64,000 nt of DNA from the IMG/VR virus record IMGVR_UViG_3300042922_001473, one strand, 5' to 3'. The notes beneath the pieces are model-generated. The model worked only from the letters and a program-made list of their open reading frames with translations. It was not told where the DNA came from and did no database searches. This document shows positions 7,825-59,284 of this stretch, in pieces. The position numbers and the translations under genes are program-made. The number at the start of each line of letters is the position of its first letter. The stretch's first letter is position 1. This DNA comes from a virus (Duplodnaviria > Caudoviricetes).

Positions 7825-10374
7825 ATGAGCGATGAATATAATATAGATGAACTTCCAGATGGTGGGTTTAATTTTGGTGTAGTAAATAAAAAAGCAAATA
7901 GCTTAGACGATTATAAAATAAACAGTCAAATTACAAAGAAAGTAATCCCAAATGCCCAATTAGTATATAAAGAAGACTCAGGGTATGGTGTTTATGATTG
8001 CCAAGACGAAGAAAAGAATGATATTAAAGTTTCTGGTGTATTTTTAAATCCATTAACAGTGGGACAAACCTATGAAGTTATGGGTAAGGTAATTTCTTAT
8101 AGGGGAGAAAGACAGCTTCAATCAGAAGTTGTTAAAAATGTAAGACCTGTTAATATGACGGGGATTGTTTCTTATTTAAAAACACTAAGAGGAATAGACG
8201 AAATAAAAGCTAATCTTATATATGAGATATTTGGAGACCAAAGCCTTGATGTTTTATCCACTAATCCAATGAAAGTTGCTAATGAGATTAAAGGAATTGG
8301 TAAAAAATCAGTTGAATCGTGGCAGGAACAACTTGAAAAATTAAAAGATAATCAACAGACAATGACTGTTTTACTAAGTTATGGACTTACTGTTAAACAA
8401 GCAAAGTTTCTTTTTGACATATATAAAGAAGGAATAGTATATAAAATAGAGCAAAATCCATATATGTTGTCAGGGGAATTAGATGGTTTTAGCTTTAGTA
8501 AGTGCGATGCAATAGCACATGAAATGGGTTATGACCCAAAGGGTATGTTTAGAATACAAGAGGGAATTATGAATATTTTAAAAGATTCCTCATTTGAAGG
8601 CAATTGCTATTTACCGTTAAGTGAAATTGTAAGACTTACAAAAGAATTATTGGATATAAAATTAGGTGTTCTTGAAATGAAAAAAATATTGTCTGACCAC
8701 AAGGAAGATAAAGATTTTAAATATTCTTACGGTCAATACAGTTATGAAGTAAATTACAATGAGTTATATAATATATATAAAGCTTACTACAACGAAAGTA
8801 ATACTGCAAATCGTGAAAATTTTAGATATACTTTAGTAGCAATTGACAAAACTGATATATTAAAAGAATTAGATAATCTTGCTCAGGTAAATAAGATAAT
8901 TTATGAAGATAATAAAATATACCTACCTCAAATATATGAAGCTGAAAAGAAAGTTGCAGAGCTTATAAGTGAATTAAATAAAACTGCTACTAATAATTTT
9001 AGTAATGTAGAAGAAGACCTTGAAGAATTGTGTAAAGAAAAAAACATAATACTTGAGGAGAAACAAAAAGAAGCAGTTATTGAGTTTAATAGAGGAAAGG
9101 GTGGATTCTATATTCTTAATGGTAGTGCAGGATGTGGTAAAACATTTACGCTTAATATTATCCTTGAAATACTTGAAAAACAATATAAAAAAGAGGGTTA
9201 TAACTGTAAAATAAAAGTATTTGCACCTACGGGAAAAGCTTCTAAGGTTGCTTCTAAAGCTACGGGAAGGGATTGTATAACAGTTCATAGAGGTTTGAAA
9301 TTTAATCCACAAAAAGGATTCGAACATAATGAAAATTTACCTATTGAAGCTGATTGCATAGTAGTAGACGAAAGTTCAATGCTTGACGTTCAACTTACAA
9401 GAAGTTTACTTGTTGCTGTTGATGATAATACTAAGGTAATTTTTCTTGGTGATACTAAGCAGTTACCATCTGTTGGTGCAGGTAATATTCTCCATGATAT
9501 TATTAATAGTGAAGCAGTTAAAATAGTTACTCTTAATGTCGTAAAAAGACAAGGAAAAGAATCAGGTATTGTGCGAAATGCAAATAACATTATTAACACA
9601 AGAATGATTTCAAGCTGTAAAGATACAAAAGACGCTTATGTTATAAAAACTGATACACCAACAAATGCTCAGAACAGAATTTTAAAATCTATTCATGAAA
9701 TAATTAGAGGATTTAATTACCCAATGGAAGATATTCAAGTTTTATGTCCACAAAAGACAAGTTTAGTTGGAACTGATGTCATGAATTATATGATACAGCA
9801 AGAGTTTAATAAAGAAGATGACGGTATTACTGTGCTCAATAAAAGAATTAAAATTTTAAACCCTGAAACTAATGAAGAAGAGAGAGTGAATCTTTACTTC
9901 AAAAAGGGGGATAAAGTTATTCATATGAAAAACAATTATTCTATGCCTTGGTATTTTAAAGGTCAATATTGGGGCTATCAAGAAGACCTTGAATTTGTAG
10001 GTATAACTAATGGGGAAATGGGGGTTATTGAAGAAATAGTAAAAGAAGAGAGTTTTGATAAAGTCAAAACAAGAATAATTGTAAGATATGACGATAAATA
10101 TGTGTTTTACGATGATAATTTCAGCGAATTGGAACACGCCTATGCTTTAACTATTCACAAATCTCAGGGTAGTCAGTGGAAAGCTGTAATAATCCCATTA
10201 ATGAAACAGAATTTTAATATGCTTGACAATAATCTTTTTTATACTGGATACACACGAGCACAGAAGTTTTGCGTTGTTGTTGGTCAAGAAGATGCTATAG
10301 CTTATGCAATAAGAACACATAAATCAAGAGAAAGATATACAGGATTAGCTGAAATGCTAAAAAGCATATCATAA
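7825..10374 (+). CDS. recD2: RecD2/TraA-family SF1B DNA helicase, copy 2
   Basis: Same motif set as 438..2975 and collinear with it end to end. Confidence 0.93.
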   Translation: MSDEYNIDELPDGGFNFGVVNKKANSLDDYKINSQITKKVIPNAQLVYKEDSGYGVYDCQDEEKNDIKVSGVFLNPLTVGQTYEVMGKVISYRGERQLQSEVVKNVRPVNMTGIVSYLKTLRGIDEIKANLIYEIFGDQSLDVLSTNPMKVANEIKGIGKKSVESWQEQLEKLKDNQQTMTVLLSYGLTVKQAKFLFDIYKEGIVYKIEQNPYMLSGELDGFSFSKCDAIAHEMGYDPKGMFRIQEGIMNILKDSSFEGNCYLPLSEIVRLTKELLDIKLGVLEMKKILSDHKEDKDFKYSYGQYSYEVNYNELYNIYKAYYNESNTANRENFRYTLVAIDKTDILKELDNLAQVNKIIYEDNKIYLPQIYEAEKKVAELISELNKTATNNFSNVEEDLEELCKEKNIILEEKQKEAVIEFNRGKGGFYILNGSAGCGKTFTLNIILEILEKQYKKEGYNCKIKVFAPTGKASKVASKATGRDCITVHRGLKFNPQKGFEHNENLPIEADCIVVDESSMLDVQLTRSLLVAVDDNTKVIFLGDTKQLPSVGAGNILHDIINSEAVKIVTLNVVKRQGKESGIVRNANNIINTRMISSCKDTKDAYVIKTDTPTNAQNRILKSIHEIIRGFNYPMEDIQVLCPQKTSLVGTDVMNYMIQQEFNKEDDGITVLNKRIKILNPETNEEERVNLYFKKGDKVIHMKNNYSMPWYFKGQYWGYQEDLEFVGITNGEMGVIEEIVKEESFDKVKTRIIVRYDDKYVFYDDNFSELEHAYALTIHKSQGSQWKAVIIPLMKQNFNMLDNNLFYTGYTRAQKFCVVVGQEDAIAYAIRTHKSRERYTGLAEMLKSIS

Positions 10375-10501: not shown

Positions 10502-11368
10502 ATGAAAACATTAGAGTGTTCATTGCTGGGCGATAAAAACTTTTCTTCACATTATGCAAAGGTAAAAGTATCAGGCATAGTTGATACAATAGAAAGACAT
10601 TATCAATTATGTAAAAGGTTTGTAACTGAAGAAGGTATATTTGCACCCCAAAAAGAAGAATATTCATATGGGAAAGAACCAGATTTTTTCATTATAAACG
10701 AAATAGAATTTCCTAAAGAATATCTTCATTATTTTTATACAATGCTTTGGGTTAAGTACTTTAGCAGTAATCCTGATTTAATATCATATGCTTCTAATTA
10801 TAAATATTTTTCAGATGCAAGTAATGAGGATGAATTAAATATTAAGTTAGATATAATTGAGAAGTATGTAAAAAAAGGCAGAAGTTCTTTAATTGAAGAT
10901 TGTGAACCATTTTTAAAGGTTTTAAGAAATGAAACAATGGCGGTTGAAATACATAGCGATATATTTAATTCAAATAAAAACATTATCGTTAATTTAGTTA
11001 ATTGTAAAGGTATTATGGATGATGAATTTTCTTTGGAAATAAAAAAGAAAAACCCAACAGTTTATGAAGATTATTTCTTTTTATGTAAACAATATAACTA
11101 TGGTCGTTACAACATGGGAGTATGTCAGCTAATTAAAATAGATAATATCAGTTATATTGCCAATTTATTTATAAAAGAAGAAAATAAATATTCCATTATT
11201 GAATATACTTATTTAGAAAAAGCATTAAGAAAATTAAAAGAAGAGGCTAAATCTAAATATCTATCTATTGCAATAGCTAAAGTAATTTTCACATCAGAGA
11301 ACTGGGATACATCAAAGAGTATCATTGAAGAAATTTTTAATGATTACCCAGTTACAATATTTAAATAA
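10502..11368 (+). CDS. NADAR-like N-terminal domain fused to DarG/TARG1-like macrodomain (both with altered motifs)
   Basis: N-term LECS..GDKNFS..YAKV..TIE.HYQLCKRF..LW.KY..NPDL; C-term SDIF..IVNLVNCKG.M..IK...P..Y..Y..IANLFIK..LEKAL..SIAI..W...IIEEIF. Confidence 0.65.
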   Translation: MKTLECSLLGDKNFSSHYAKVKVSGIVDTIERHYQLCKRFVTEEGIFAPQKEEYSYGKEPDFFIINEIEFPKEYLHYFYTMLWVKYFSSNPDLISYASNYKYFSDASNEDELNIKLDIIEKYVKKGRSSLIEDCEPFLKVLRNETMAVEIHSDIFNSNKNIIVNLVNCKGIMDDEFSLEIKKKNPTVYEDYFFLCKQYNYGRYNMGVCQLIKIDNISYIANLFIKEENKYSIIEYTYLEKALRKLKEEAKSKYLSIAIAKVIFTSENWDTSKSIIEEIFNDYPVTIFK

Positions 11369-17292: not shown

Positions 17293-17321
17293 TTGACAAT
17301 AGTCAAGTTTAGAATTATAAT
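17293..17321 (+). promoter_or_regulatory. sigma-A promoter with TTGACAATAGTCAA palindrome
   Basis: TTGACA-17 nt-TATAAT; palindrome covers -35. Confidence 0.75.
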
Positions 17322-38959: not shown

Positions 38960-40303
38960 TTATTTTTTATATACTTTCTTCTCAAATGGTCTTACAAATG
39001 TTTCGTTTTTTCCCAATAAATAATGATATTCTTGTGCCAGTGCAATTGCTTCATCAGATGCTTTAGCTCCTACTGGAAGTTTTCTAATATAAGGGTGTAT
39101 TCTTATAGTTTCTTCACTATATTTTGTCTTATCAAAAAATCTAATTTCATTTTTTTCTTTTTCATTAGTGTTGTTCTTATTTTGTTGATACGAGAATACA
39201 ACAGAAGGTAAATCAGAATTAATTTCATCAGTTTTAGAACGAATAACATGTAATCTTTTTACTAATGAATCATTATATTTATATTCAATATCAGTAGTTA
39301 AACAGCAATAAACTTCTAATATAAAATTCTCAATATTTCCTACTATATTTTTACCTTCATTTGTATCAGTCCATGGACAATAGAAAAATTCTAACTTATT
39401 ATCATATAATCCACTAAATTCTTTCTCATTAGTTGCAGTCACCTTATATAAGAGCATAAATCTATCTTCTGTAAATATTTCTTGAAAGAATATTTTAGAA
39501 AATTGATTTGAGTTTTTAAATTCTGCTAAAACGCCACTTGAAGGTAAGTGATATCTTTTTTCATGAAGCAATTCTTTGTATTGGTTTGTAGACGTAATTA
39601 TATTTGGTGCGTAAAACATTTCTGTAATGCGATAGTAATTTTGTGGAACGATATTTTCTGTATCTTCACTTATAAAATTTGATAACACATAAAACATATT
39701 AGTTATTAATTGGTCGTTTGAGTTATAAATCATATAATCTTCAATTGATTTGATATTATACCCAAGTTTTTTGTATTCAGTAAATATAGTTTTCATTGTA
39801 TGTTCATTAGGTTTACTTTTTGAAGCATTAATAAAAGGCAAATCTAAATAAGGATATGGTTCTAATTTAGTTAATAATTTGTTATTCGCCTCTATGCCAT
39901 ATAATATCTGAGGTGTGTTGACTAAATAACAAAATTGTTGACACAAAATATTTATATAGCAAGAAAATGCATCTTCATTAATAACTTTTTTTGAGTGTAA
40001 TGTGGAAAAAATAAAATAAAAAAAAGATAAAAACTCTTTGTATAGCTTATTTTTTTTAATGAAAAAAGCAGTGTCTTTGTAAAAACCATTAAGGTTCTCT
40101 TTAAACTTATCTGGGTTTTCTATGGAAAGAAACAATTGATATTCATATTTAGTTATTAATTCTTTAGCTATGGGACTTTCTGTATAGACAAATATGTCAG
40201 TAATTAAGGAGTTAAAATCAATATTTTTAACAGATTCTAAAATAGCAAAAGCTGTTGCTTCTGTTCGTTTTTTAAGTATTTTATTTCTGGTTGTTACATC
40301 CAT
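38960..40303 (-). CDS. Hypothetical protein (447 aa)
   Basis: GGAGG RBS; C-terminal IHPYIRKLP..AS.EA..ETFVRPF. Confidence 0.8.
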   Translation of the reverse strand: MDVTTRNKILKKRTEATAFAILESVKNIDFNSLITDIFVYTESPIAKELITKYEYQLFLSIENPDKFKENLNGFYKDTAFFIKKNKLYKEFLSFFYFIFSTLHSKKVINEDAFSCYINILCQQFCYLVNTPQILYGIEANNKLLTKLEPYPYLDLPFINASKSKPNEHTMKTIFTEYKKLGYNIKSIEDYMIYNSNDQLITNMFYVLSNFISEDTENIVPQNYYRITEMFYAPNIITSTNQYKELLHEKRYHLPSSGVLAEFKNSNQFSKIFFQEIFTEDRFMLLYKVTATNEKEFSGLYDNKLEFFYCPWTDTNEGKNIVGNIENFILEVYCCLTTDIEYKYNDSLVKRLHVIRSKTDEINSDLPSVVFSYQQNKNNTNEKEKNEIRFFDKTKYSEETIRIHPYIRKLPVGAKASDEAIALAQEYHYLLGKNETFVRPFEKKVYKK

Positions 40304-40459
40304 TAATTAAATTACCTCCAAAAGTGTATTTGTAATTAATTATATCAAAATAATTAACTTAAGTATAGTTTGATTTTTTAGACATTCGCTTGTATATAAT
40401 ATAATAATTTTATATAAAAGGAGTTTTTTGAATATTTTTAAAAGGTTCGGGAGGAAACA

Positions 40460-40840
40460 ATGAAAAGTATTAGAACTATTGACGTTCATGAAATGGATAG
40501 GGAAGTGGCAATATTGGTTTATAAAAATAAAATATATGAAGATGCAAATCACCAATATGCTTTAGAAATAGCTTTGTCAGAAAATGGAAAATGCTTAGAA
40601 ATAAACTTAGAAAAAGATTTAGATAAAGCCATTGATTTAACTTATGATATGAGTAAAAATAATGAAATATACGCATTTGATTTATATAATGACGGTATTA
40701 ATCCAATGTACTTAATAAGTCACTTTAAAAGCAATTTAGAGGCTTGCTATGAACTAATAAGGGAATACGCATTAAAACACAATTATACTTTGGGTTCATT
40801 TGGGGAAAGTATGGGTAAATATTGTGAGATTTATATTTAA
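40460..40840 (+). CDS. Hypothetical protein
   Basis: GGAGG RBS. Confidence 0.7.
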   Translation: MKSIRTIDVHEMDREVAILVYKNKIYEDANHQYALEIALSENGKCLEINLEKDLDKAIDLTYDMSKNNEIYAFDLYNDGINPMYLISHFKSNLEACYELIREYALKHNYTLGSFGESMGKYCEIYI

Positions 40841-40846
40841 GCAAAC

Positions 40847-40878
40847 AAAAATAACACTGATTAATCAGTGTTATTTTT
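40847..40878. terminator. Bidirectional terminator (perfect 32-bp palindrome)
   Basis: AAAAATAACACTGATT|AATCAGTGTTATTTTT between convergent genes. Confidence 0.75.
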
Positions 40879-40978
40879 TATATAAAAAGATGTAATTCAT
40901 AATATCCAAGCATCCTGAAAAGGTAGCAATTCAATTAATTCATACATCTTACACTTTATTTATTCTATATTTTTATTC

Positions 40979-41677
40979 TTAGCTTATAACATAACCGTAT
41001 TTCTTTAAATAAGTATAAAATTTCTTTTCAGGTTCTAACCCGACTGACATTTTAGCAAGTCCGTCAGCAATTTCATTAAAATCATCACCTGTATGAGCGT
41101 CAACTTTACAAAAATGTACTTTCATATTTTCATTGTTTTTTAAGAATTTTTGCATCCATTGGTAATATTCTTCTGAAAATGCATTATCTCTTTTCCAAAA
41201 TCCAGTACCATGATAACATGTCCCGACATAATCATGAAATAATACTACTTCTTTAAAGCCATTCTTTTTAGCATAAACAAGTGCTTTCATAGCACCCAAA
41301 AGTTCGCCACCAATTTGTTGCATTGATATTGCACCTTCATTATTACCAGAACCTTTATCATGACCTATTATTTTATTGTCTTTGACCAAGAGTAGTCCAA
41401 ATCCATAATTATGAACATTTTCATTAAAACTACCATCAATATAACAATGTAGGCAGTCTTTTGGAAATAAATTTTCTGATTTATACATTAATGGGTCTTT
41501 AGTACCCAGGTAATCCTCAGCTTCAGGTAAAGTAGCAAATCCAGAATATACTGAACCGCTAACACCTTTAACACACTTTTCAGTTTCAGACCATGTTTTC
41601 TTTATAACGTTTTCAATAGGATTTTTTGTTATTGGGTCAATCCCAAACTTAATTGCGTAATAATTTTTTTTAGCCAT
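40979..41677 (-). CDS. rnhA: Ribonuclease HI with N-terminal viroplasmin hybrid-binding domain
   Basis: YYAIK.G...W.E..V.G.SG..Y.GF...EA; YIDGS, GEL, HDY.G, KV.AHTG..FNE.AD.LAK. Confidence 0.92.
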   Translation of the reverse strand: MAKKNYYAIKFGIDPITKNPIENVIKKTWSETEKCVKGVSGSVYSGFATLPEAEDYLGTKDPLMYKSENLFPKDCLHCYIDGSFNENVHNYGFGLLLVKDNKIIGHDKGSGNNEGAISMQQIGGELLGAMKALVYAKKNGFKEVVLFHDYVGTCYHGTGFWKRDNAFSEEYYQWMQKFLKNNENMKVHFCKVDAHTGDDFNEIADGLAKMSVGLEPEKKFYTYLKKYGYVIS

Positions 41678-41826
41678 ATTTTTTATCCTTTCTAATTTTT
41701 TATTTATGTAATATCAAAGGAAAGAGAAATTCTCTTTCCTGAAATATTTAATTTACCCAATTCGCTTTTGATAATTTTCTTCTCTTTTCTTTGCTAATTC
41801 TTTTCTTGCAAATGCCTCAGCTTTGT

Positions 41827-42186
41827 CTATTTCTTTTTTGTTACTATTCCTTTTTGAAAAAGAAGCAACGCTAATCCCTTATTATCCTCGTAAAAAGTTA
41901 ATGACCTCGCAAATTTTTTTAGCTCTAAATCATTAGGTAATGTCAGATTTGCATTTAGATTGGTATTTATATCATTTATTGCTCTACTTAATAAATCTTC
42001 TCCGCAAAAATATCTTAATTCTTCATTTTTAATACCTGTTGTAGCTATTGCCAATTCAAATGCTTCTTTTGTAATATTTACCACAGCATTTATAATTCTT
42101 TCAGAACCACAATCAGTATCACCAAATTTAGGATGTTCAATTTGATATAAATTTTCTGATATTACTTTTGTAAATTTTTCTATCAA
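41827..42186 (-). CDS. Hypothetical protein; C-terminus may extend to 41753 in the -1 frame
   Basis: A AAA AAG heptamer just before the stop; open -1 frame of 26 codons. Confidence 0.55.
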   Translation of the reverse strand: MIEKFTKVISENLYQIEHPKFGDTDCGSERIINAVVNITKEAFELAIATTGIKNEELRYFCGEDLLSRAINDINTNLNANLTLPNDLELKKFARSLTFYEDNKGLALLLFQKGIVTKKK

Positions 42187-42242
42187 ATCCTTATTTACGG
42201 GTATATGGATTTAGATGTGGCATTCCATAACTGAATTTTAGT

Positions 42243-42410
42243 TTAATGTAGTTTCATTAATATTTCTTCTTGCTCTTTTAAATTTTCAATTCTATTTTTT
42301 ATTATTCGTATCTGTTCTTCATCATCATTACCATAAGCTTGTAATAAATCATCTTCAAGACAATCTATTTCTGCTCTAATTTCATATATATCCATCATTT
42401 CTATATCCAT
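42243..42410 (-). CDS. Small acidic coiled-coil protein (not in ORF track)
   Basis: GAGGAG RBS; MDIEMMDIYEIRAEIDCLEDDLLQAYG... Confidence 0.55.
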   Translation of the reverse strand: MDIEMMDIYEIRAEIDCLEDDLLQAYGNDDEEQIRIIKNRIENLKEQEEILMKLH

Positions 42411-42566
42411 CATTTTTCACTCCTCACCTAAATATTAATTAATACCACAATTTATACCTATTTCTTTTTATTTATTGATTTATGCCAATACTACACCTAA
42501 TTCCTCGTACCCTTATTTACTTCTGAATTTCTTTACATTTTCTCCTTCGAGTAATACAGTTATTTT

Positions 42567-43868
42567 CTAAACTCTTTTAAACTCAATAATATATTTGATT
42601 TTTACTTGACTTTCATTGTAAACAATATATTCGTTGTGTACTAACGTTCTACCTTTTTTACCCATTACTGAATTATATCCTCTTGGTGCATGAGTAAGTT
42701 GTGGTTGACCATCTTCATATTCTTTGATTTTGCCAGTTGCAACTTCACAAACAAACATGAAGTTTGTATCAAGTCCAGCATTGCTTGCTGTTCCAAAACC
42801 ATTCGCATAATTTCCTGATTTTGTTGAACAATCCGCAAAATATATGCCTGTCCCAAACAAACTACCTGTATGAACTGCAGAAGCAGGCTTTATTTTTAAT
42901 CCACTTTGCATTATAGAAAGCATGTTTTCATTTCTTGTTCCATGAAAAAGTGTTGAAGTTGTTACATTGTAAGGATTAAATTTATCATAACCAACCATAT
43001 CTTTAAATTCATAGATATCTTTAATATCGAACCCAAAATGGTGATTATGTCCTCTTGTAGTATTAACCCAATTTACTAAATCTTTATATGCTTTTGTTCT
43101 TGAGGAAAGTGCTATAAGTTTGATATTTAAAGAATTGTATTTATCTTGAATTGATTTTTCAAGACTATCATGTGCTTTAACTATAGAACTCATTACACCA
43201 AGTAAGTCTTTATTTCTGTTAAGCTTATTGTAATTATCAATTATGAAACTTTTGTAATCAATATTTCCTGTTCCAAAAACAACTGGAATAACTGAATAAA
43301 AATCATTTGTATAACTTTCTAAAATAGAGCCAGTTCTACCACTATCAAGAAGTGATTCGATTGTGTTAAGTATTTCAATACCTTCAGCAACCTGTGAGGT
43401 AGATAATTTTCCAAGTGGGGTGTCAATACTTTTTACAAGGTAATCTGTAGCAGAACTATATAGCTTTCCAATAAGTCTTAAAACTTTGTCTGTAATTTTA
43501 GACAAATCTTCTGCTTTGTTTTTGGTTGATACTTTTACAGCTTTTGCTGAAAATGAGTAGTTATCTGCTACATCAACTTTTCTGTATCCCTTATTTTCTT
43601 TTTCCTTCATAATTCCTCTATATTCATCTTCTGCTAAATACCTGCTGGTGTAATATCTTCCTTCTTTTCTTGGAGTTCTTCCACCAACCCTGCCATATTC
43701 AGTAAAAATCCTATACGGATATTGTCCTGTACCTGACTGTAGTTCAATAATGTAAAATTTGTTTGAATGTTCTGAAATTGAAGCCATATTTAATATTTCT
43801 TTTTGTAATACGCTAAAATTTTGAAAAAGTGGTTCATCTACAGAACCTATTCTAATTACATTTGCCAT
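42567..43868 (-). CDS. PARP1-like poly(ADP-ribose) polymerase: WGR + regulatory + catalytic domains
   Basis: NKFYIIEL..EYGRVG..K..KGY (WGR); PLGKLS..Q..G..L..FYS.IP (regulatory); LFHGTR, LFG.GIYFAD..KS.NY, CEVA.G, NSVMG, HNEYIVY..Q...KY. Confidence 0.92.
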   Translation of the reverse strand: MANVIRIGSVDEPLFQNFSVLQKEILNMASISEHSNKFYIIELQSGTGQYPYRIFTEYGRVGGRTPRKEGRYYTSRYLAEDEYRGIMKEKENKGYRKVDVADNYSFSAKAVKVSTKNKAEDLSKITDKVLRLIGKLYSSATDYLVKSIDTPLGKLSTSQVAEGIEILNTIESLLDSGRTGSILESYTNDFYSVIPVVFGTGNIDYKSFIIDNYNKLNRNKDLLGVMSSIVKAHDSLEKSIQDKYNSLNIKLIALSSRTKAYKDLVNWVNTTRGHNHHFGFDIKDIYEFKDMVGYDKFNPYNVTTSTLFHGTRNENMLSIMQSGLKIKPASAVHTGSLFGTGIYFADCSTKSGNYANGFGTASNAGLDTNFMFVCEVATGKIKEYEDGQPQLTHAPRGYNSVMGKKGRTLVHNEYIVYNESQVKIKYIIEFKRV

Positions 43869-44040
43869 AATAAATATTCTCCTGTTAAAATAGTTTTTTA
43901 CTTCCTTTTTTAATAAATCTTTTTCATTATATGCACTTATTAAGATAAATAAAAAAGAGAATGGACAAATTGTTGCTATGTAAATTTTCTTTAAAAAAGA
44001 GTTAATGAATTTTCACATTAACCCTTTACAAGAATTTATT

Positions 44041-45825
44041 TTATATAAAAACTTTTTCGTTTTTATAGATTATTTCATCAAGTTCGTCTGCTGTAAGAGA
44101 TTCTTTTTCTATTAATACATTAGCTATTTTTTCAAGAATGTGTTTATTCTTAGTTAATAAATCAACAGTTTCATTATAAAGTTCTAAAGAAAGTTTAGAA
44201 GCTTCATCTAATACAGATTTATTATCAACACTCATTTGGGTAAGATTTAACATCCCGAATTTGTCATTCATTCCATATGTGGATATCATTTGCTTTATAA
44301 TATTTGTTGCTTGCAATATATCATTTGAAGCTCCCGTAGTTATTAAGTCTTCATTTCCAAGTAATAATAACTCACCAACTCTACCTGCGTATCTAACCTT
44401 TACTTCGTTTTCTAATTCTGTCTTAGATAGTAGCCCCAATTTCTTTGGAGTTATAAAGGTAACACCACCAGCACCTGAAGTAGAAGGAATTATAGTTACT
44501 TTTTGTACTTCATTTTCCGTAATAAGTTTAGAACAAAGTGCATGTCCAGCCTCATGCCAAGAAATGAGTTTTATTTCTTCATCTTTTCTACTTCTATTTT
44601 TCTTTTTATCACCTTGCATAACAATTTTGTAATATGCGTCATCAATATCTTCTTGGTCAACTGCTTCTTTATTTTTTGTTACAGCAAGTATAGTCGCTTC
44701 ATTGAGCAATGATTCAAGTCCTGCTCCTGAGAATCCAATAGTAAGCTTTGAAAGTTGTTCAAAATTTATCTCTGGTGAAAGCTTTTTATTTTTTGCATGT
44801 ACTTTTAATATTTCTAATCTATCATTACTGTCTGGTAAATTAATAGCAATACGCTTATCAAATCTTCCTGGTCTTATTAAAGCTTCATCAAGGTTTTCAA
44901 TTCGGTTCGTGGCCGCAATAACTAAGACACCTTTACTTTCATCAAAACCGTCAAGTTCTTTTAACAGGGCATTTATAGTTTGGTCTTTTTCGGAGTTTTG
45001 TCCTTCTCCTCTTTTTGTTCCAACAGCGTCTATTTCGTCAATAAATATAATACATGGAGATTTTTTTCTTGCATTGTCGAATAAGCTTCTAACTCTTTTT
45101 GCACCCATACCTACAAACATTTCAACAAAATCAGAACCGCTTATGCTGAAAAAAGGAACTTTTGCCTCTCCTGCGATAGCTTTTGCTGTTAAAGTTTTAC
45201 CTGTTCCAGGAGGACCATAAAGAATTACGCCTTTTGGCATTTCAGCTCCCATATTAGTAAATTTTGTAGGGTTTTTAAGAAATTCCACAAGCTCAACCAT
45301 TTCAGCTTTTGCTTCATTATTACCTGCAATATTATCAAAAGTTACATTCGGTATCTTTTCTTGAGCTTCTTCCATGTTTTTTTGTGAACCCATGTTTTGA
45401 GAATATCTTTTAAACATATATAACATTAAAGCAACCATAACAACTGTTCTTAATGTATACCATATAAAATCTTCAACTTGATTAGCAGAAGAAGATATTT
45501 CCTCAACCTTTACATTTTTTTCAAGTAAACTTCTTTTAAATCCCTCACTTTTAGGATTGTCAGTAATGTAAATATTTTCATTCTTGTCAAAGAATGTTAT
45601 TTTCGGTGAACCTACATCAATTAAAACTTTTTCTACCGACTGAGAATTAACCATTTGCATAAATTCATTAAATGTTATTTCATTTATAGTATCTGTAGTA
45701 GCTTTTGATAAACTATTTCCTATAATCATAGAAATTAGTAATATTGTAATTATTACTACATACCAACCATTCTTTTTTAGCCATTTTAAAATTTTGTCAT
45801 AATTATCTTTCAATTTTTCCTCCAA
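44041..45825 (-). CDS. ftsH: ATP-dependent zinc metalloprotease FtsH
   Basis: 2 TM, GPPGTGKT, IFIDEID, RPGRFD, HEAGH, TTGASND. Confidence 0.96.
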   Translation of the reverse strand: MEEKLKDNYDKILKWLKKNGWYVVIITILLISMIIGNSLSKATTDTINEITFNEFMQMVNSQSVEKVLIDVGSPKITFFDKNENIYITDNPKSEGFKRSLLEKNVKVEEISSSANQVEDFIWYTLRTVVMVALMLYMFKRYSQNMGSQKNMEEAQEKIPNVTFDNIAGNNEAKAEMVELVEFLKNPTKFTNMGAEMPKGVILYGPPGTGKTLTAKAIAGEAKVPFFSISGSDFVEMFVGMGAKRVRSLFDNARKKSPCIIFIDEIDAVGTKRGEGQNSEKDQTINALLKELDGFDESKGVLVIAATNRIENLDEALIRPGRFDKRIAINLPDSNDRLEILKVHAKNKKLSPEINFEQLSKLTIGFSGAGLESLLNEATILAVTKNKEAVDQEDIDDAYYKIVMQGDKKKNRSRKDEEIKLISWHEAGHALCSKLITENEVQKVTIIPSTSGAGGVTFITPKKLGLLSKTELENEVKVRYAGRVGELLLLGNEDLITTGASNDILQATNIIKQMISTYGMNDKFGMLNLTQMSVDNKSVLDEASKLSLELYNETVDLLTKNKHILEKIANVLIEKESLTADELDEIIYKNEKVFI

Positions 45826-45856
45826 TTCAATTATCTTTAATTTATTTGATAATAGT

Positions 45857-45886
45857 ATTATACACTATATCATTGACAATAGTCAA
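45857..45886 (-). promoter_or_regulatory. ftsH promoter with TTGACAATAGTCAA palindrome
   Basis: Palindrome at 45873-45886; minus-strand TTGACT-18 nt-TATAAT. Confidence 0.65.
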
Positions 45887-45962
45887 CATTAAATTATAAC
45901 AACATATAGTATTTAGAAAAACAAAAAAATAAAAGCACTTACAAGTACTTTTATTTTTAATA

Positions 45963-46541
45963 TTATGCAACTTTTACTCTATATAATCTATCAAATTGTT
46001 CCTTCGTACAGCCATAATCAAATAAATAAAATTTTCCGTCTGAGTAACCCCATGAAGATAATTTTAAAACATCTCCCTCTAATAAATCATAACCATAAAT
46101 TAAAGTGTAAATATCTCCATATAATTCACTATTTTCAACTTCATTAACTAATTTTTCAGGAACAATGTGCTTATATAAATATTTTTCTGTATAATATTTT
46201 TTAATATTATTAAAATGTTTTTTAAACCTTTTAATTTCTTTTTTATCTTCTTCTGAAATATTTTTCAGTTTGGTAAGCGGTGTTACTTTTTTCATTATAA
46301 GTATATTATCATTTTTCGAAATGTCAAAAATAGGACATAATATGTCAACATGGTCGCTTAAATTAGTATATATGTCAAATTCAGTACTGTTTTGCATTTC
46401 GCCTTTACTATTATTTATAGCATATTTAATTACTATTTCTCCTGCATCAAAAACTTTTCTACTTGAACCTTTACCAATAAAAGGGTATAACTTAGAAATT
46501 TTGCTCAATTTTTGACTATATAATCCTTCGTAACTATTCAT
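45963..46541 (-). CDS. Protein-kinase-like fold protein
   Basis: IGKGSSRKVF, VIK, QN..E, LIM, GD...SWG, DYG. Confidence 0.7.
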   Translation of the reverse strand: MNSYEGLYSQKLSKISKLYPFIGKGSSRKVFDAGEIVIKYAINNSKGEMQNSTEFDIYTNLSDHVDILCPIFDISKNDNILIMKKVTPLTKLKNISEEDKKEIKRFKKHFNNIKKYYTEKYLYKHIVPEKLVNEVENSELYGDIYTLIYGYDLLEGDVLKLSSWGYSDGKFYLFDYGCTKEQFDRLYRVKVA

Positions 46542-46778
46542 AATCTTCTCCTATGTAAAATAATTTTAAAATCACCTTTTATATAAATATGTAATATTTT
46601 ACTTTATCAGGGTTGAAATTATTCGAACTGTAAGTGAATATGACGTGATTGCAAGATTATAAGATTACATTAATTTACATATCATAAAACATAACCTTAT
46701 AAATATGTTTGGTGACTTAATTGTTATCTATACAAGGTTAAATACTTTATATAGTAAAGAAATTTTGGAGGAAAGATT

Positions 46779-46994
46779 ATGGGTATCGTATTGAGAGGTA
46801 TTGTAGATTTTGTAAGTCGTGCATTGTCAGGAGATAGAGATGTGTTGTTTGTTATAGAAGGAATTGTGCTCTTATTTGCAATTATCCTCATGGTATTTGT
46901 GTTTAAAACATTGGTTATTGATGGTATTTTAGTTCTGTTTGAAAGTATATCAGAATCAATAACAGAAGCTATGACTATCGAAATAGGATTATAA
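46779..46994 (+). CDS. Small membrane protein
   Basis: GGAGG RBS, hydrophobic segment, terminator after. Confidence 0.65.
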   Translation: MGIVLRGIVDFVSRALSGDRDVLFVIEGIVLLFAIILMVFVFKTLVIDGILVLFESISESITEAMTIEIGL

Positions 46995-47183
46995 GAGAGA
47001 AGTAGGGAAGGTAAAAAAGGGCGTAAGCTCTTTTTTAATACACTTATATTGGTTCTCGATTTTGTCTCATTTAAATAGCATATTGATATAAAAGCTTATT
47101 CTCAAATTGCGTTACAAAATAAGTAAAAAAATAGAGGACAAAATTATCCTCTATGAGCCTTATATGACGAACTAAAGTTTAGT

Positions 47184-48451: not shown

Positions 48452-49549
48452 ATGAATTATAATACAATAACTATTGTATTATTGGTAACTATTATAATAT
48501 TTTTAGTATTGAAATTAAAGAATATTAGTAAAGGACAAACACCAGGGCTATTTTTTATAGCTTTGGGTGGAGGATTAATTTCTTCTTCATTTCCAAGTTT
48601 AAGTGATAGAATAATAAATTTGGGAGAAAAAATTTTAGTTAGCAATAGTATACCAAATTTAAATGATACAAATTATACATCACTTATTAGTGGTTTTATA
48701 TTAATTGTTATAGGAATTTATTATAATCAAAATGTAAAGGACAGATTTTTTTTACTTAATATACTAAGCAAAGATAGAAGATTAATAAATGATAAGAATA
48801 CGATAAAAGAACTAAACGTATCCGATTTTAAATTAAAAGAATGTCAAATTGACGTAGTGACGATGTTTAATGATGCAAATAATATGACACAAAGTTCATG
48901 TAAATATATAGCTGAAGAAATAGAAGAAAAAACTAAGGACTTTATTAGTCAAAGCAATGATTTTAAAAAAGCTTTTACAGGCATGTTTTCAATCCCTTTT
49001 ACTATCTTGGCAGGTACTTATTTATCTGCAACTGGAATAGATGAATACTTTGAATATAATCGCAACAAGAATAAGTATTATTCTCTAAAAGTAAAAAAAT
49101 GGAGTATAAAAAAAGGAGGGTATCCATGTTTAAATATAACTACACAAAATACTAATGTTCAATCATCAGAAGTAATAGTTGCTATATCCATAACTAAGAA
49201 TGTAACTGATGGAGATTTGATACAGTTTGGAAATAAAGATTCCATAAAAATAGAGCTTCAATCCACAGGTGATAATGTAATAGAATATAGAGAGCAATTA
49301 GATGGTTATACAAAGCTAATAGTTGATACTATTGAGAATTTAAAGGCAACCTATTCCAATTTAGAAACAGTTCATTTGGTAGGGGCAATTCCAAGTTGTT
49401 TATCTATTGAATTGGGCAGAAGGATAAGTCTAAATAGGAATAGGTTGCCACAAATAATAAGTTATCATTTTAAGTATGGGAATACACCAAAATACAGTTT
49501 TGGATTAGTAGTTACTGAGAAAGATAAAGGAAAACTAATTGAAGTATAG
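48452..49549 (+). CDS. CBASS effector: transmembrane segments + SAVED domain
   Basis: N-terminal TM helices; SIPF...G, VAISIT..V, VHL..AIPS.L..ELGR, LP.I..Y.F, Y.FGL. Confidence 0.85.
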   Translation: MNYNTITIVLLVTIIIFLVLKLKNISKGQTPGLFFIALGGGLISSSFPSLSDRIINLGEKILVSNSIPNLNDTNYTSLISGFILIVIGIYYNQNVKDRFFLLNILSKDRRLINDKNTIKELNVSDFKLKECQIDVVTMFNDANNMTQSSCKYIAEEIEEKTKDFISQSNDFKKAFTGMFSIPFTILAGTYLSATGIDEYFEYNRNKNKYYSLKVKKWSIKKGGYPCLNITTQNTNVQSSEVIVAISITKNVTDGDLIQFGNKDSIKIELQSTGDNVIEYREQLDGYTKLIVDTIENLKATYSNLETVHLVGAIPSCLSIELGRRISLNRNRLPQIISYHFKYGNTPKYSFGLVVTEKDKGKLIEV

Positions 49550-49565
49550 GGGGACTTGAGAATTC

Positions 49566-50984
49566 ATGTATGATTTATCATTAGATTTTAAGAAATTTTA
49601 TTATAATAAAGTTGTATTACCCAAAGAAGAGAAAAACAATCTCAGGGAAAAGAAAAAACTAAATATTCAAAGACTTAGAGATGGTCTTGACGAATACAAT
49701 GCCCAAAATAAAACAAATTATAAAATTGCAGAAACATTAGAGCAAGGTAGCGTAGCGATGTCAACAGTAACTCAAAATGAAGAAAATGACTATGATATTG
49801 ATATTGCTATTGTATTTGATGATACAAATTTAGATGGATTAGGACACATTGCTGTTAAAAATGTAATAGTGGATGCACTAAAAAGAAAATGCATATGTTT
49901 TAAAACTCCACCAGAGGCAAAAACTAATTGTGTAAGAATAGTATATTCAGATAATTACCATATAGATTTTGCTATATATAGAAGAACGAAGAATGACGAT
50001 GACAGTTATAGCTACGAACATGCAGGAGGTAGTGCGTGGAGAGCAAGAGACCCAAGAGCAATTAACAATTGGTTTAAAGATGAAATAAAAATTCATGGTG
50101 AAAAATTAAGACAATCAATAAGACTTTCAAAGATGTTTTGCAAATCAAGAAGTAATTGGGAGATGCCAGGAGGATTAATTCAATCTGTATTAAATGATGA
50201 AAAGATTCAGAATTATGATAGGATAGATGAAATGTTCTATTATACAATGAAAGAAGTGTTGGAACGATTAGAAAATGATATAGAAGTTTATAATCCTACA
50301 AATACTGACCAAACACTGTTGTTAAAAAGTTCAGATAGAGATAAAATGAATAACTTAACTAATAGACTTAAAACTTATTTAAGTAAATTAGATATTTTAT
50401 TTGATGATAAATGTACTCTAAAAAAAGCTATTGAAGCATGGTATGAATTTTTTCAACATGATTTTTGGACTTATGATGAAGAAAATGAAAAAAGAGCTTA
50501 TGCTTTAGCTGAATCTTGTAATTTGAAAAAATCTTCTAATGTAGATTTAATTGAATTTGATGATACAGAAGAATTTATCAGAAACATAATGCCTGTAGAA
50601 GATAAATATTCTATAAAACTTGACTGTAGAGTCAAAGAATTTGAAGTTAAAAACAACAAAATAATTATTAAGCAAATAACAAAGTTATCAACGTTAAATA
50701 ATTTAGGTAAAAAAATTTCATTAGGAAGAAAGTTGGAATTTTATTTAGATATTAATAGAGTGCCATACCCTTATGAAGTTTATTGGAAAGTAAAAAATAA
50801 TGGATATGAGGCTGAAAAACTTAATTGTATTCGAGGTCAAATATTTAAAAATCCAAAAGCACCTTATGACATTTTAGAAGAGGAAAGTAGCTTTTGGGGC
50901 AACCATTATGTAGAATGTTATATTGTAAAAAATGGTATATGTGTAGCAAAAGATAGAGTTGAAGTGCCTATTGCAATTTATTAG
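49566..50984 (+). CDS. CBASS cGAS/DncV-like nucleotidyltransferase (SMODS) with C-terminal AGS-C domain
   Basis: QGSVAM.T..DYDID, CVRI.Y..HIDFAIY, W..RDP; AGS-C VP.PY..YWKVKN.G..RGQI..E...F.G.HYVECYIVK. Confidence 0.92.
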   Translation: MYDLSLDFKKFYYNKVVLPKEEKNNLREKKKLNIQRLRDGLDEYNAQNKTNYKIAETLEQGSVAMSTVTQNEENDYDIDIAIVFDDTNLDGLGHIAVKNVIVDALKRKCICFKTPPEAKTNCVRIVYSDNYHIDFAIYRRTKNDDDSYSYEHAGGSAWRARDPRAINNWFKDEIKIHGEKLRQSIRLSKMFCKSRSNWEMPGGLIQSVLNDEKIQNYDRIDEMFYYTMKEVLERLENDIEVYNPTNTDQTLLLKSSDRDKMNNLTNRLKTYLSKLDILFDDKCTLKKAIEAWYEFFQHDFWTYDEENEKRAYALAESCNLKKSSNVDLIEFDDTEEFIRNIMPVEDKYSIKLDCRVKEFEVKNNKIIIKQITKLSTLNNLGKKISLGRKLEFYLDINRVPYPYEVYWKVKNNGYEAEKLNCIRGQIFKNPKAPYDILEEESSFWGNHYVECYIVKNGICVAKDRVEVPIAIY

Positions 50985-54742: not shown

Positions 54743-54780
54743 TTGACAATAGTCAACGAATATAATATAATATGACTATA
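54743..54780 (+). promoter_or_regulatory. sigma-A promoter with TTGACAATAGTCAA palindrome and TGACTATA near +1
   Basis: TTGACA-17 nt-TATAAT(54766-54771). Confidence 0.75.
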
Positions 54781-58354: not shown

Positions 58355-59284
58355 CTATAGTTGACCAATATATGCAAAAGGGTTAAAACGTTCAATCTCG
58401 ATAACATATTCACTTATTAAAGACATACATTCGTCTAAATTTCTATAACAAAATGGTGCTTCTGTTTTAATTGAATCATTCGAAATAGAGTTTGGTATAT
58501 ATATTCTATTTCTTAGTTCTTCGTAATCGAAAATTTCAGCATACTTCTTAGCTTCGCCTCTACTCATAACTCTCCCTGTACCATGACTGATTGAATTAAG
58601 TGCATTATCTATGTTCTCTGTAGCTTTAATTAAAATCATTTCACCATCCATGTTGGAGGGGATTACGCTAATATCATTTTTATTTAATTTTACCGAACCT
58701 TTTCGTATAATGACTCCTTCATTTGTTTCTTCAAAAGAGTTATGAACGGTATCTAAAATTAACTGTGATTTACCAAAAACTTTATCAATTAATTCCTTTA
58801 TAGCTATTCGGTTTTCTTTAGCCCATTCAATAACATTTGAATATTCTCTATTGAAAGCAATAGGGTTATCTATTAAACTGTTTATCTCTTTACCTTCAAG
58901 TCGTGAACCTGTATGTATGAGAAAATAAACTTCTGAAGTATTAGAAGAATATGCAGTTAAAAAATGATTGCCAGAACCCAAGTGACCTTTAGAATTTGTG
59001 TTGTTTTTTAATAATGAATAAACACTATCCCAGTCCTTAGTTGTAAACTCAGTTTTATTAATTTTTGTCTTTATTAAAAGCATTCCGCATCCTATGTCAG
59101 ACAAAGTATACTTTCTCCAATCTTCTTGTTTTGTTAAAACTGTTGTTCCTGTTGGAAGAGGACTTTTACCAGGGCAAGCATCAGGGAAAAATACAATCTT
59201 TTCTGCTCTTAAATCATGTGGAAGCCAACTATATAACAATCCTTCATTAATGGAAGATAAGTTTAAAATATTCATATATTTCAC
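58355..59284 (-). CDS. rtcB: RtcB-family RNA ligase (compact)
   Basis: PDACPG, SDIGCGM, GSGNHF, HTGSR, HN, RKG, SHGTGR, EAP..Y. Confidence 0.9.
   Translation of the reverse strand: MKYMNILNLSSINEGLLYSWLPHDLRAEKIVFFPDACPGKSPLPTGTTVLTKQEDWRKYTLSDIGCGMLLIKTKINKTEFTTKDWDSVYSLLKNNTNSKGHLGSGNHFLTAYSSNTSEVYFLIHTGSRLEGKEINSLIDNPIAFNREYSNVIEWAKENRIAIKELIDKVFGKSQLILDTVHNSFEETNEGVIIRKGSVKLNKNDISVIPSNMDGEMILIKATENIDNALNSISHGTGRVMSRGEAKKYAEIFDYEELRNRIYIPNSISNDSIKTEAPFCYRNLDECMSLISEYVIEIERFNPFAYIGQL

Follow-up and report, generated by a model that had tools for sequence, protein, structure and literature searches.

What would a eukaryote-like poly(ADP-ribose) polymerase (PARP) do on a plasmid- or phage-like replicon of bacteria? 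The question is raised by a gene at positions 42567-43868 of a 64,000-nucleotide stretch of the IMG/VR virus record IMGVR_UViG_3300042922_001473 (the whole stretch is referred to here as the window). An initial annotation, made from the sequence letters, had described its product as a compact PARP of a kind rare in bacteria, located on a mobile element and possibly acting in defence or host manipulation. Our analysis makes it very probable that the gene encodes an intact enzyme of the PARP family and lies on a giant plasmid-like replicon. We lean towards a role in which DNA breaks activate reversible ADP-ribosylation as a damage signal of the replicon and its host.

The gene encodes an intact relative of PARP1, PARP2 and PARP3

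The open reading frame (ORF) list and its translations revealed an intact ORF of 433 amino acids with an ATG start, lying on the minus strand at exactly 42567-43868; over the same positions the plus-strand frame contains stops throughout and is not open. All of the motifs quoted in the initial annotation were found in the protein, P0001, namely EYGRVG (Y58-G59-R60), PLGKLS, FYSVIP, HGTR (H309), IYFAD (Y343) and HNEY (E413). The proposed core of a WGR domain, a regulatory domain and a catalytic domain with an intact H309-Y343-E413 triad was also confirmed, with the triad invariant and all three Pfam domains above their curated cut-offs: WGR (PF05406; aa 25-98; 41.4 bits against a cut-off of 22; E = 1.6e-10), PARP_reg (PF02877; aa 147-244, profile positions 31-127 of 135; 57.3 bits against 26.8; E = 2.4e-15) and PARP (PF00644; aa 259-405 plus the C-terminal strand; 114.2 bits against 26.7; E = 7.1e-33). 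A phmmer search of PDB sequences matched residues 25-407 to PARP2 (4.9e-32) and PARP1 (4.6e-29), and also returned PARP3, PARP4 and the tankyrases; the alignments bring the H, Y and E positions together. No other Pfam domain in P0001 exceeded its cut-off, and the protein begins 14 residues before the WGR domain and therefore lacks the zinc fingers and BRCT domain of PARP1; no NCBIfam model matched it. The match is far beyond chance: the gene is genuine and intact and encodes a bacterial relative of PARP1/2/3, which sense DNA breaks in humans.

A confident AlphaFold2 model built from 44 homologues (mean pLDDT 85.8, pTM 0.76) contained a WGR domain, a disordered linker, a helical regulatory domain (HD) and an ART catalytic domain (Table 1), with the HD helices at residues 128-147, 157-175, 181-193, 205-208, 213-231 and 240-246. 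Foldseek matched the model best to the WGR-HD-ART chains in structures of PARP1 and PARP2 on DNA breaks (E ~1e-28; TM 0.73 to PARP1 4dqy_C), and comparison of the HD and ART domains with PARP1/2 catalytic fragments gave target-normalised TM values of 0.67-0.75. Among the 44 homologues, the invariant residues were N36, K37, G59, R60, K90 and Y95 in the WGR domain and H309, G310, Y343, K350, S351, Y354 and E413 in the catalytic domain, the latter aligning with PARP1/2 residues.

Residue equivalences were read after aligning P0001 by MAFFT with eukaryote-like representatives of the PARP1 and PARP2 types. In this alignment N36 corresponds to PARP2 N116 at the WGR-HD interface, Y58 to W138 (the aromatic character is retained), R60 to R140, and Y95 to Y188, a Tyr close to the 5'-phosphate that is Phe in PARP1. 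Each of these four PARP2 residues is needed for activation by 5'-phosphorylated breaks (Langelier et al., PMC4081085). A Tyr in place of the WGR Trp, giving YGR, is the usual form in bacterial PARPs (PMC5966428). P0001 has a WGR domain with the activation residues, an HD preceding the ART domain, and an ART domain with H-Y-E.

Compared with PARP1/2, P0001 has ~30 fewer residues just before the catalytic Glu, and H411, two residues before E413, occupies the position of PARP1 Y986; both features are common to the two bacterial clades described below. The spacing from Y to E is 70 residues in P0001 and 69 in the active enzyme CdPARP, and the short loop is compatible with an active enzyme because these spacings are nearly equal.

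Assignment of the replicon to a giant Bacillota plasmid family

The longest contig carrying P0001 is 534,699 bp. Four more contigs, which come from an NCBI assembly, a JGI metagenome and two sequencing runs, encode the identical protein. The G+C content of the window is 22-30% throughout, with no compositional break at the PARP gene, and no tRNA genes were identified within the 64 kb. A megablast search of positions 40000-47000 against plasmid and phage collections gave no match, ruling out that the window is an already sequenced plasmid or phage of these collections.

A tblastn search of PLSDB identified full-length PARP homologues only on plasmids of at least 360 kb, from Bacillota, Pseudomonas and Vibrio. 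The Pseudomonas and Vibrio homologues (plasmids of 0.88-0.97 Mb) are ~26% identical to P0001. The closest named homologues (54-61% identity) lie on Bacillota replicons of 360-740 kb, and those in PLSDB are on plasmids of Aneurinibacillus (722 kb), Paenibacillus polymyxa (pSC2, 510 kb), P. thiaminolyticus (360 kb), Brevibacillus (414 kb), Jeotgalibacillus (603 kb) and Bacillus thuringiensis 407 (BTB_502p, 502 kb).

We searched 73 non-overlapping window ORFs of at least 80 amino acids against the whole Aneurinibacillus plasmid (W01) and BTB_502p (W02). Homologues were found for 22 of the 73 on the former (26-62% identity, coverage at least 0.6), largely colinear, and for 16 on the latter. The gene order CheX, DUF2196, SbcC-like, RNase H1-like, PARP, FtsH is preserved over ~60 kb on the Aneurinibacillus plasmid, and an ORFan at 38960-40303 matches the same set of large Firmicute plasmids as FtsH does. 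BTB_502p is a genuine megaplasmid with ~1.8 copies per cell (PMC3569317). These shared, partly colinear ORFs, together with the status of BTB_502p, place the window, as judged from gene content, in a giant Bacillota plasmid family, as part of a plasmid-like replicon of a low-GC Firmicute. Within it, the PARP gene is part of the colinear backbone and not of an island, and it is best read as vertically inherited in a family of plasmid-like Bacillota replicons of 0.2-0.75 Mb. The claim of a mobile element thus stood as far as a very large plasmid-like replicon is concerned; self-mobility was not borne out, since PLSDB types all of the plasmids with a full-length match as non-mobilizable. An origin from a jumbo phage was rejected for now, given that phage PARPs are only ~26% identical and that the common gene sets are shared with plasmids.

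Distribution of the family and comparison with known enzymes

A maximum-likelihood tree of 86 sequences, inferred with a quick tree search, placed P0001 in a clade of 24 proteins of ~418-443 aa (the window clade), whose named members come from large Bacillota replicons and whose sister group has members of 394-413 aa. At a large distance in the same tree is a second clade (~445-471 aa), ~35% identical to the window clade. Both clades coexist on the Aneurinibacillus plasmid and on a 739-kb contig of Bacillus sp. M6-12. A library clustered at 50% identity contained 4638 representatives at E ≤ 1e-3 and, at the stricter E ≤ 1e-30, 103; proteins of eukaryotic length are part of this count. Relatives are encoded at no fewer than 272 loci in species-representative genomes, complete Capsulimonadaceae chromosomes among them, and occur in many Myxococcota, Bacteroidota and Chloroflexota.

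With these numbers the description of such enzymes as rare in bacteria does not hold; it mirrors counts from 2014-2018, of 28 and 72 sequences (PMC4245714, PMC5966428). Nor is the protein compact for its kind, as 400-470 aa is the usual length of a bacterial PARP. The initial annotation had also reasoned that homologues in the form of ordinary chromosomal genes would speak against its proposal; distant relatives are such genes, and members of the window clade are not.

Bacterial PARPs came to light in 2011-2018, and in vitro activity is established for two of them; according to a 2021 review their targets and function are still unknown (PMC8120803). CdPARP is active in vitro, and HaPARP is DNA-dependent and makes poly(ADP-ribose) (PAR) (PMC8120803, PMC4245714). 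CdPARP (Clostridioides difficile CD160, UniProt T3DQ72; Garcia-Saura et al. 2018, PMC5966428) resembles P0001 in its order of WGR, PARP_reg and PARP_cat domains, its length of ~430-450 aa, YGR in place of WGR, the H-Y-E triad, the short loop before the Glu and its Firmicute origin. It differs in that its published residues are G58, H322, Y359 and E428, which gives an H-to-Y spacing of 37 as opposed to 34 in P0001. This numbering, rather than the CdPARP sequence, suggests that CdPARP belongs to the second clade (~451 aa) and not to the window clade.

HaPARP (Herpetosiphon aurantiacus, A9B244) is likewise a minimal WGR, HD and ART enzyme, with a WGR regulatory part of ~88 aa, and its DNA-dependent PAR synthesis is reversed by a bacterial PARG. 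In contrast to P0001 it is encoded on a Chloroflexi chromosome with no plasmid context reported, and Chloroflexota matches are only 24-28% identical. Human PARP2 and PARP3 are the best sequence and structure matches (22-26% identity). P0001 retains the equivalents of N116, R140 and Y188, the triad, and the NAD+-site residues K, S and Y; apart from the Tyr, the His and the shortened loop already noted, it differs in lacking a disordered basic N-terminal region, and bacteria offer no HPF1 or histone context. Full-length WGR-PARPs also occur in the large mobile genomes of jumbo and other large phages (Xanthomonas XacN1 and Xoo-sp13, Klebsiella KP13-16, Cellulophaga phi17:2). These are ~25-27% identical to P0001, and no phage record contains DNA nearly identical to the window.

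P0001 adds no new enzyme type and is an ordinary member of a known family. The new points are that the window clade is linked to giant plasmids of Bacillota, that these replicons also carry a paralogous clade, and that BTB_502p has an orthologue (BTB_RS29805); the word 'plasmid' was absent from the bacterial-PARP literature searched. As BTB_502p resides in B. thuringiensis 407 Cry-, a tractable strain kept in laboratories, the function of a bacterial PARP becomes an ordinary knockout question.

A predicted DNA-break-activated, reversible ADP-ribosylation system

The architecture, conserved residues, fold, replicon family and synteny described above were observed directly, whereas the dependence on DNA, the formation of polymer, the targets and the biological role are inferences. 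DNA-break-activated ADP-ribosylation is the best-supported mechanism because the activation relay is conserved and HaPARP provides a precedent, and we regard activation of P0001 by DNA breaks as likely. The enzyme is most likely catalytically competent and would work like PARP2/PARP3 and HaPARP. Its WGR domain would bind a DNA break, probably one with a 5'-phosphate, and the contact would be relayed through the WGR-HD interface, destabilising the helical domain and letting NAD+ reach the active site. The enzyme would then ADP-ribosylate itself and nearby targets, probably with polymer.

The outcome would be a reversible DNA-damage signal for the giant replicon and its host rather than the action of a suicide effector, a preference that we base on the backbone position of the gene and on the co-resident removal and repair genes. 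The replicon family also carries DNA and RNA repair, nucleotide-metabolism and defence genes as well as ADP-ribose-removing enzymes. Analysis of five PARP-bearing plasmids revealed Macro domains in 5/5, ADP-ribosylglycohydrolase (ARH) in 2/5 and microbial-type PARG in 2/5, and in Bacillus sp. M6-12 an ARH gene lies 6 kb from the PARP. These plasmid-borne enzymes could remove ADP-ribose. Eukaryote-type PARG (PF05028) gave zero matches in the five plasmids and likewise zero in the control genomes, so that its absence carries no weight. The sole removal candidate in the window is a 288-aa member of a family of NADAR-DarT1 and macrodomain fusions at 10502-11368 (+), which matches the NCBIfam DarG model (2.6e-10); its 42-43% identical homologues carry one or both of the two Pfam domains, and three PARP-bearing plasmids encode full-length relatives with a macrodomain annotation.

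To search for partners, 18 window proteins were compared by tblastn with 12 other loci of the window clade and one sister locus. No partner gene was conserved across these loci, and synteny was restricted to lineages. Within 8-10 kb of the PARP, FtsH was present in 3/12 clade loci, the RNase H1-like gene in 3/12, an MjaI-like gene in 2/12 and a CBASS pair in 1/12. The block of FtsH, PARP, RNase H1-like and MjaI-like genes recurs on related replicons, and the loci that keep these neighbours are the nearest relatives of the window in the tree. Since sharing is confined to nearest relatives, the linkage reflects inherited synteny and not an obligate operon. Elsewhere the PARP has unrelated neighbours, among them tmk, ssb and genes for recombinases, an S24 peptidase, LigA and FEN, or for giant hypothetical proteins.

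Several points weigh against the proposed mechanism and role. The neighbours differ between lineages, so that context gives no partner or target. No PARG or ARH gene is present within the 64-kb window, and the candidate at 10502-11368 has lost both glycine-rich ADP-ribose loops while its NADAR half is conserved. The window clade is only ~35% identical to the clade whose residue spacing suits CdPARP, and its catalytic activity is predicted across this distance. The substitution W138A abolishes PARP2 activation (PMC4081085), and P0001 has a Tyr at that position. An H-Y-E triad is required for polymer yet not sufficient, as PARP3 makes only mono-ADP-ribose. Finally, the evidence favours repair no more than defence, and the preference for a repair signal over the alternatives below is tentative, falling short of an even chance.

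The first alternative is an abortive-infection sensor, in which the WGR domain would detect phage DNA ends and runaway PAR synthesis would drain NAD+ until the infected cell stops. NAD+ depletion is a common outcome of defence. A type I CBASS lies 4.5 kb from the PARP gene in the window, a CBASS pair adjoins the PARP on B. cereus-group megaplasmids, and MjaI-like and GmrSD-like nuclease genes are close by in several loci. We nevertheless consider this role unlikely: P0001 matched no PADLOC 2.0 family at E ≤ 1e-3 in the same search that detected the nearby CBASS pair, CBASS adjacency is confined to one of the 12 other clade loci, the gene lies in a colinear backbone rather than a variable island, the removal enzymes on the same replicons argue for reversibility, and the distant relatives are ordinary chromosomal genes.

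WGR-PARPs might also be hallmark backbone genes of giant plasmids, serving as a replicon-borne DNA-break alarm on which very large, low-copy replicons depend for their integrity. The Bacillota family often carries two paralogues together with macrodomain, PARG or ARH genes, and PARPs occur independently on the ~0.9-Mb Pseudomonas and Vibrio plasmids. This broader proposal is doubtful at present; if true, a bacterial PARP would for the first time have a function assigned in vivo.

PARP1-3 ADP-ribosylate DNA ends in vitro, and P0001 might modify phosphorylated DNA or RNA termini together with the RNase H1-like, RNA ligase, RtcB-like and exonuclease gene products. Four lineages have an RNase H1-like gene close to the PARP, the window carries an RNA ligase, an RtcB fragment, RNase T-like and SbcC-like genes and two RecD2-like genes, and the replicon has NADAR-DarT1 and DarG-like macrodomain fusions, of which family members reverse DNA ADP-ribosylation. 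This association tracks phylogeny, is missing from most clade loci and is explained by the shared backbone, and there is no direct evidence of nucleic-acid targets for any bacterial PARP, making such an activity improbable. It is just as improbable that the enzyme benefits the plasmid independently of damage, stabilising a low-copy replicon by modifying host or plasmid proteins of replication, partition, transcription or proteolysis: its backbone position next to an ftsH gene under an element-wide palindromic promoter-like site, the low copy number of BTB_502p (PMC3569317) and the size of the PLSDB plasmids with full-length PARPs would fit, but the DNA-break relay residues, needless for such a role, are all conserved, and FtsH adjacency is seen in only 4/13 loci.

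Neighbouring genes and transcription signals

The PARP gene belongs to a co-oriented minus-strand run comprising a 192-aa ORF, ftsH, PARP, a 56-aa ORF, a 119-aa ORF and the RNase H1-like gene (Table 1). A terminator scan, which required at least three G-C pairs, did not call the hairpin between ftsH and PARP; this hairpin may be a weak terminator, with PARP either having its own weak promoter or being read through from ftsH. The promoter-like site of the ftsH unit overlaps an exact copy of an element-wide palindrome, TTGACAATAGTCAA, which has 9 matches in the window at ≤2 mismatches compared with 3.0 expected. Exact copies are located at 45873-45886 (overlapping the -35 element of the ftsH promoter-like site), 17293-17306 and 54743-54756.

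Table 1. Features of the PARP gene and its surroundings (window positions)
Feature	Position	Strand	Basis or remark
PARP gene P0001 (WGR, helical regulatory and ART domains)	42567..43868	-	ORF list, Pfam, PDB sequence search, AlphaFold2, Foldseek
Ribosome-binding site AGGAG, 10 nt upstream of the PARP ATG	43879..43883	-	Sequence read
WGR domain, ~aa 15-98, beta-rich, strands plus helix	43575..43826	-	Pfam, model, MAFFT, invariance
Disordered linker between WGR and helical domain, ~aa 99-127	43488..43574	-	pLDDT <50 at aa 102-116
Helical regulatory domain (HD/PARP_reg), ~aa 128-246, six helices	43131..43487	-	Pfam, model
ART catalytic domain, ~aa 250-432	42573..43121	-	Pfam, invariant columns, alignment
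FtsH-type AAA metalloprotease, directly upstream	44041..45825	-	Pfam and NCBIfam; orthologue ≤7 kb from PARP on three related replicons
AT-rich 7-bp hairpin and T-run between ftsH stop and PARP	43993..44022	-	Sequence read
Best promoter-like site of the ftsH(-PARP) unit: TTGACT, 18 nt, TATAAT	45857..45886	-	Promoter scan
56-aa acidic coiled-coil-like ORF with strong ribosome-binding site, downstream of PARP	42243..42413	-	
119-aa ORF, TTG start, no assigned family	41827..42186	-	
Terminator-like hairpin after the 119-aa ORF	41718-41740		Terminator scan
RNase H1-like gene (hybrid-binding domain plus RNase H)	40979..41677	-	Pfam

Orthologues of the RNase H1-like gene (49-59% identity) lie near the PARP at three loci (L014, L098 and L099), and others are present on the Aneurinibacillus plasmid and BTB_502p. 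The 56-aa and 119-aa ORFs had no homologues in the 12 clade loci and the sister locus, and a Pfam search of five unassigned ORFs around the PARP, even with a lenient E-value, brought no useful match. Plasmid-borne FtsH homologues (52-56% identity) were also found on numerous large plasmids of Firmicutes, including a 436-kb Alkaliphilus plasmid and 235-276-kb plasmids of Clostridium botulinum and C. sporogenes, which suggests that this backbone gene is common well beyond PARP-bearing plasmids.

The CBASS genes of the window, at 48452-50984 (+), encode first a 2TM-SAVED effector (PADLOC 2.2e-83) and then a CD-NTase that ends in an AGS-C tail (1.6e-180). BTB_502p carries two orthologous CBASS pairs, one of them adjoining its PARP, and on the Aneurinibacillus plasmid a TIGR02452 microbial PARG follows the CBASS pair two small genes later.

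Further observations on related loci and replicons

Short genes encoding WGR (with or without PARP_reg) and no catalytic domain lie directly upstream of a full-length PARP in Bacillus sp. M6-12 (locus L008, 7182-7844) and Aneurinibacillus (locus L001, 8590-8877), and representatives of ~205-280 aa without a catalytic domain are present in the 50%-identity library (P0125, P0162, P0221 and P0223). The WGR-only genes could be decoys, regulators or duplication remnants. On a 608-kb ENA contig (L097), a sister-clade PARP at 8001-9242 (43% identical) ends an array of RHS-toxin and immunity genes (SMI1/KNR4, SUFU, Imm33-like); SocA-Panacea, TelA, NUDIX and isochorismatase-family genes come next, of which the last two could recycle ADP-ribose and nicotinamide. 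PARP homologues with 36% and 30% identity were found on contigs of 2.4 and 5.3 kb binned as Woesearchaeota and Archaeoglobales (L016 and L034, respectively), for which mis-binning is possible; a 2014 survey reported no archaeal PARPs (PMC4245714).

A 40-member Bacillus cluster (P0055, B. cereus group) is located mostly on contigs of ~500 kb and in one case on a contig of 6.03 Mb. The latter exceeds the 5.5-Mb chromosome of B. thuringiensis 407 and may represent an integrated or mis-joined megaplasmid. Within the window, two paralogous RecD2-type helicase genes at 438-2975 and 7825-10374 (+) lie 5 kb apart; they have separate best matches on the Aneurinibacillus plasmid (62% and 55%), and both match a single gene on BTB_502p. 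A 309-aa ORF at 58355-59284 (-) matches only the C-terminal part of RtcB (profile positions 241-412 of 426). This ORF, which adjoins a peptide deformylase gene, may represent an RtcB that has been truncated or split.

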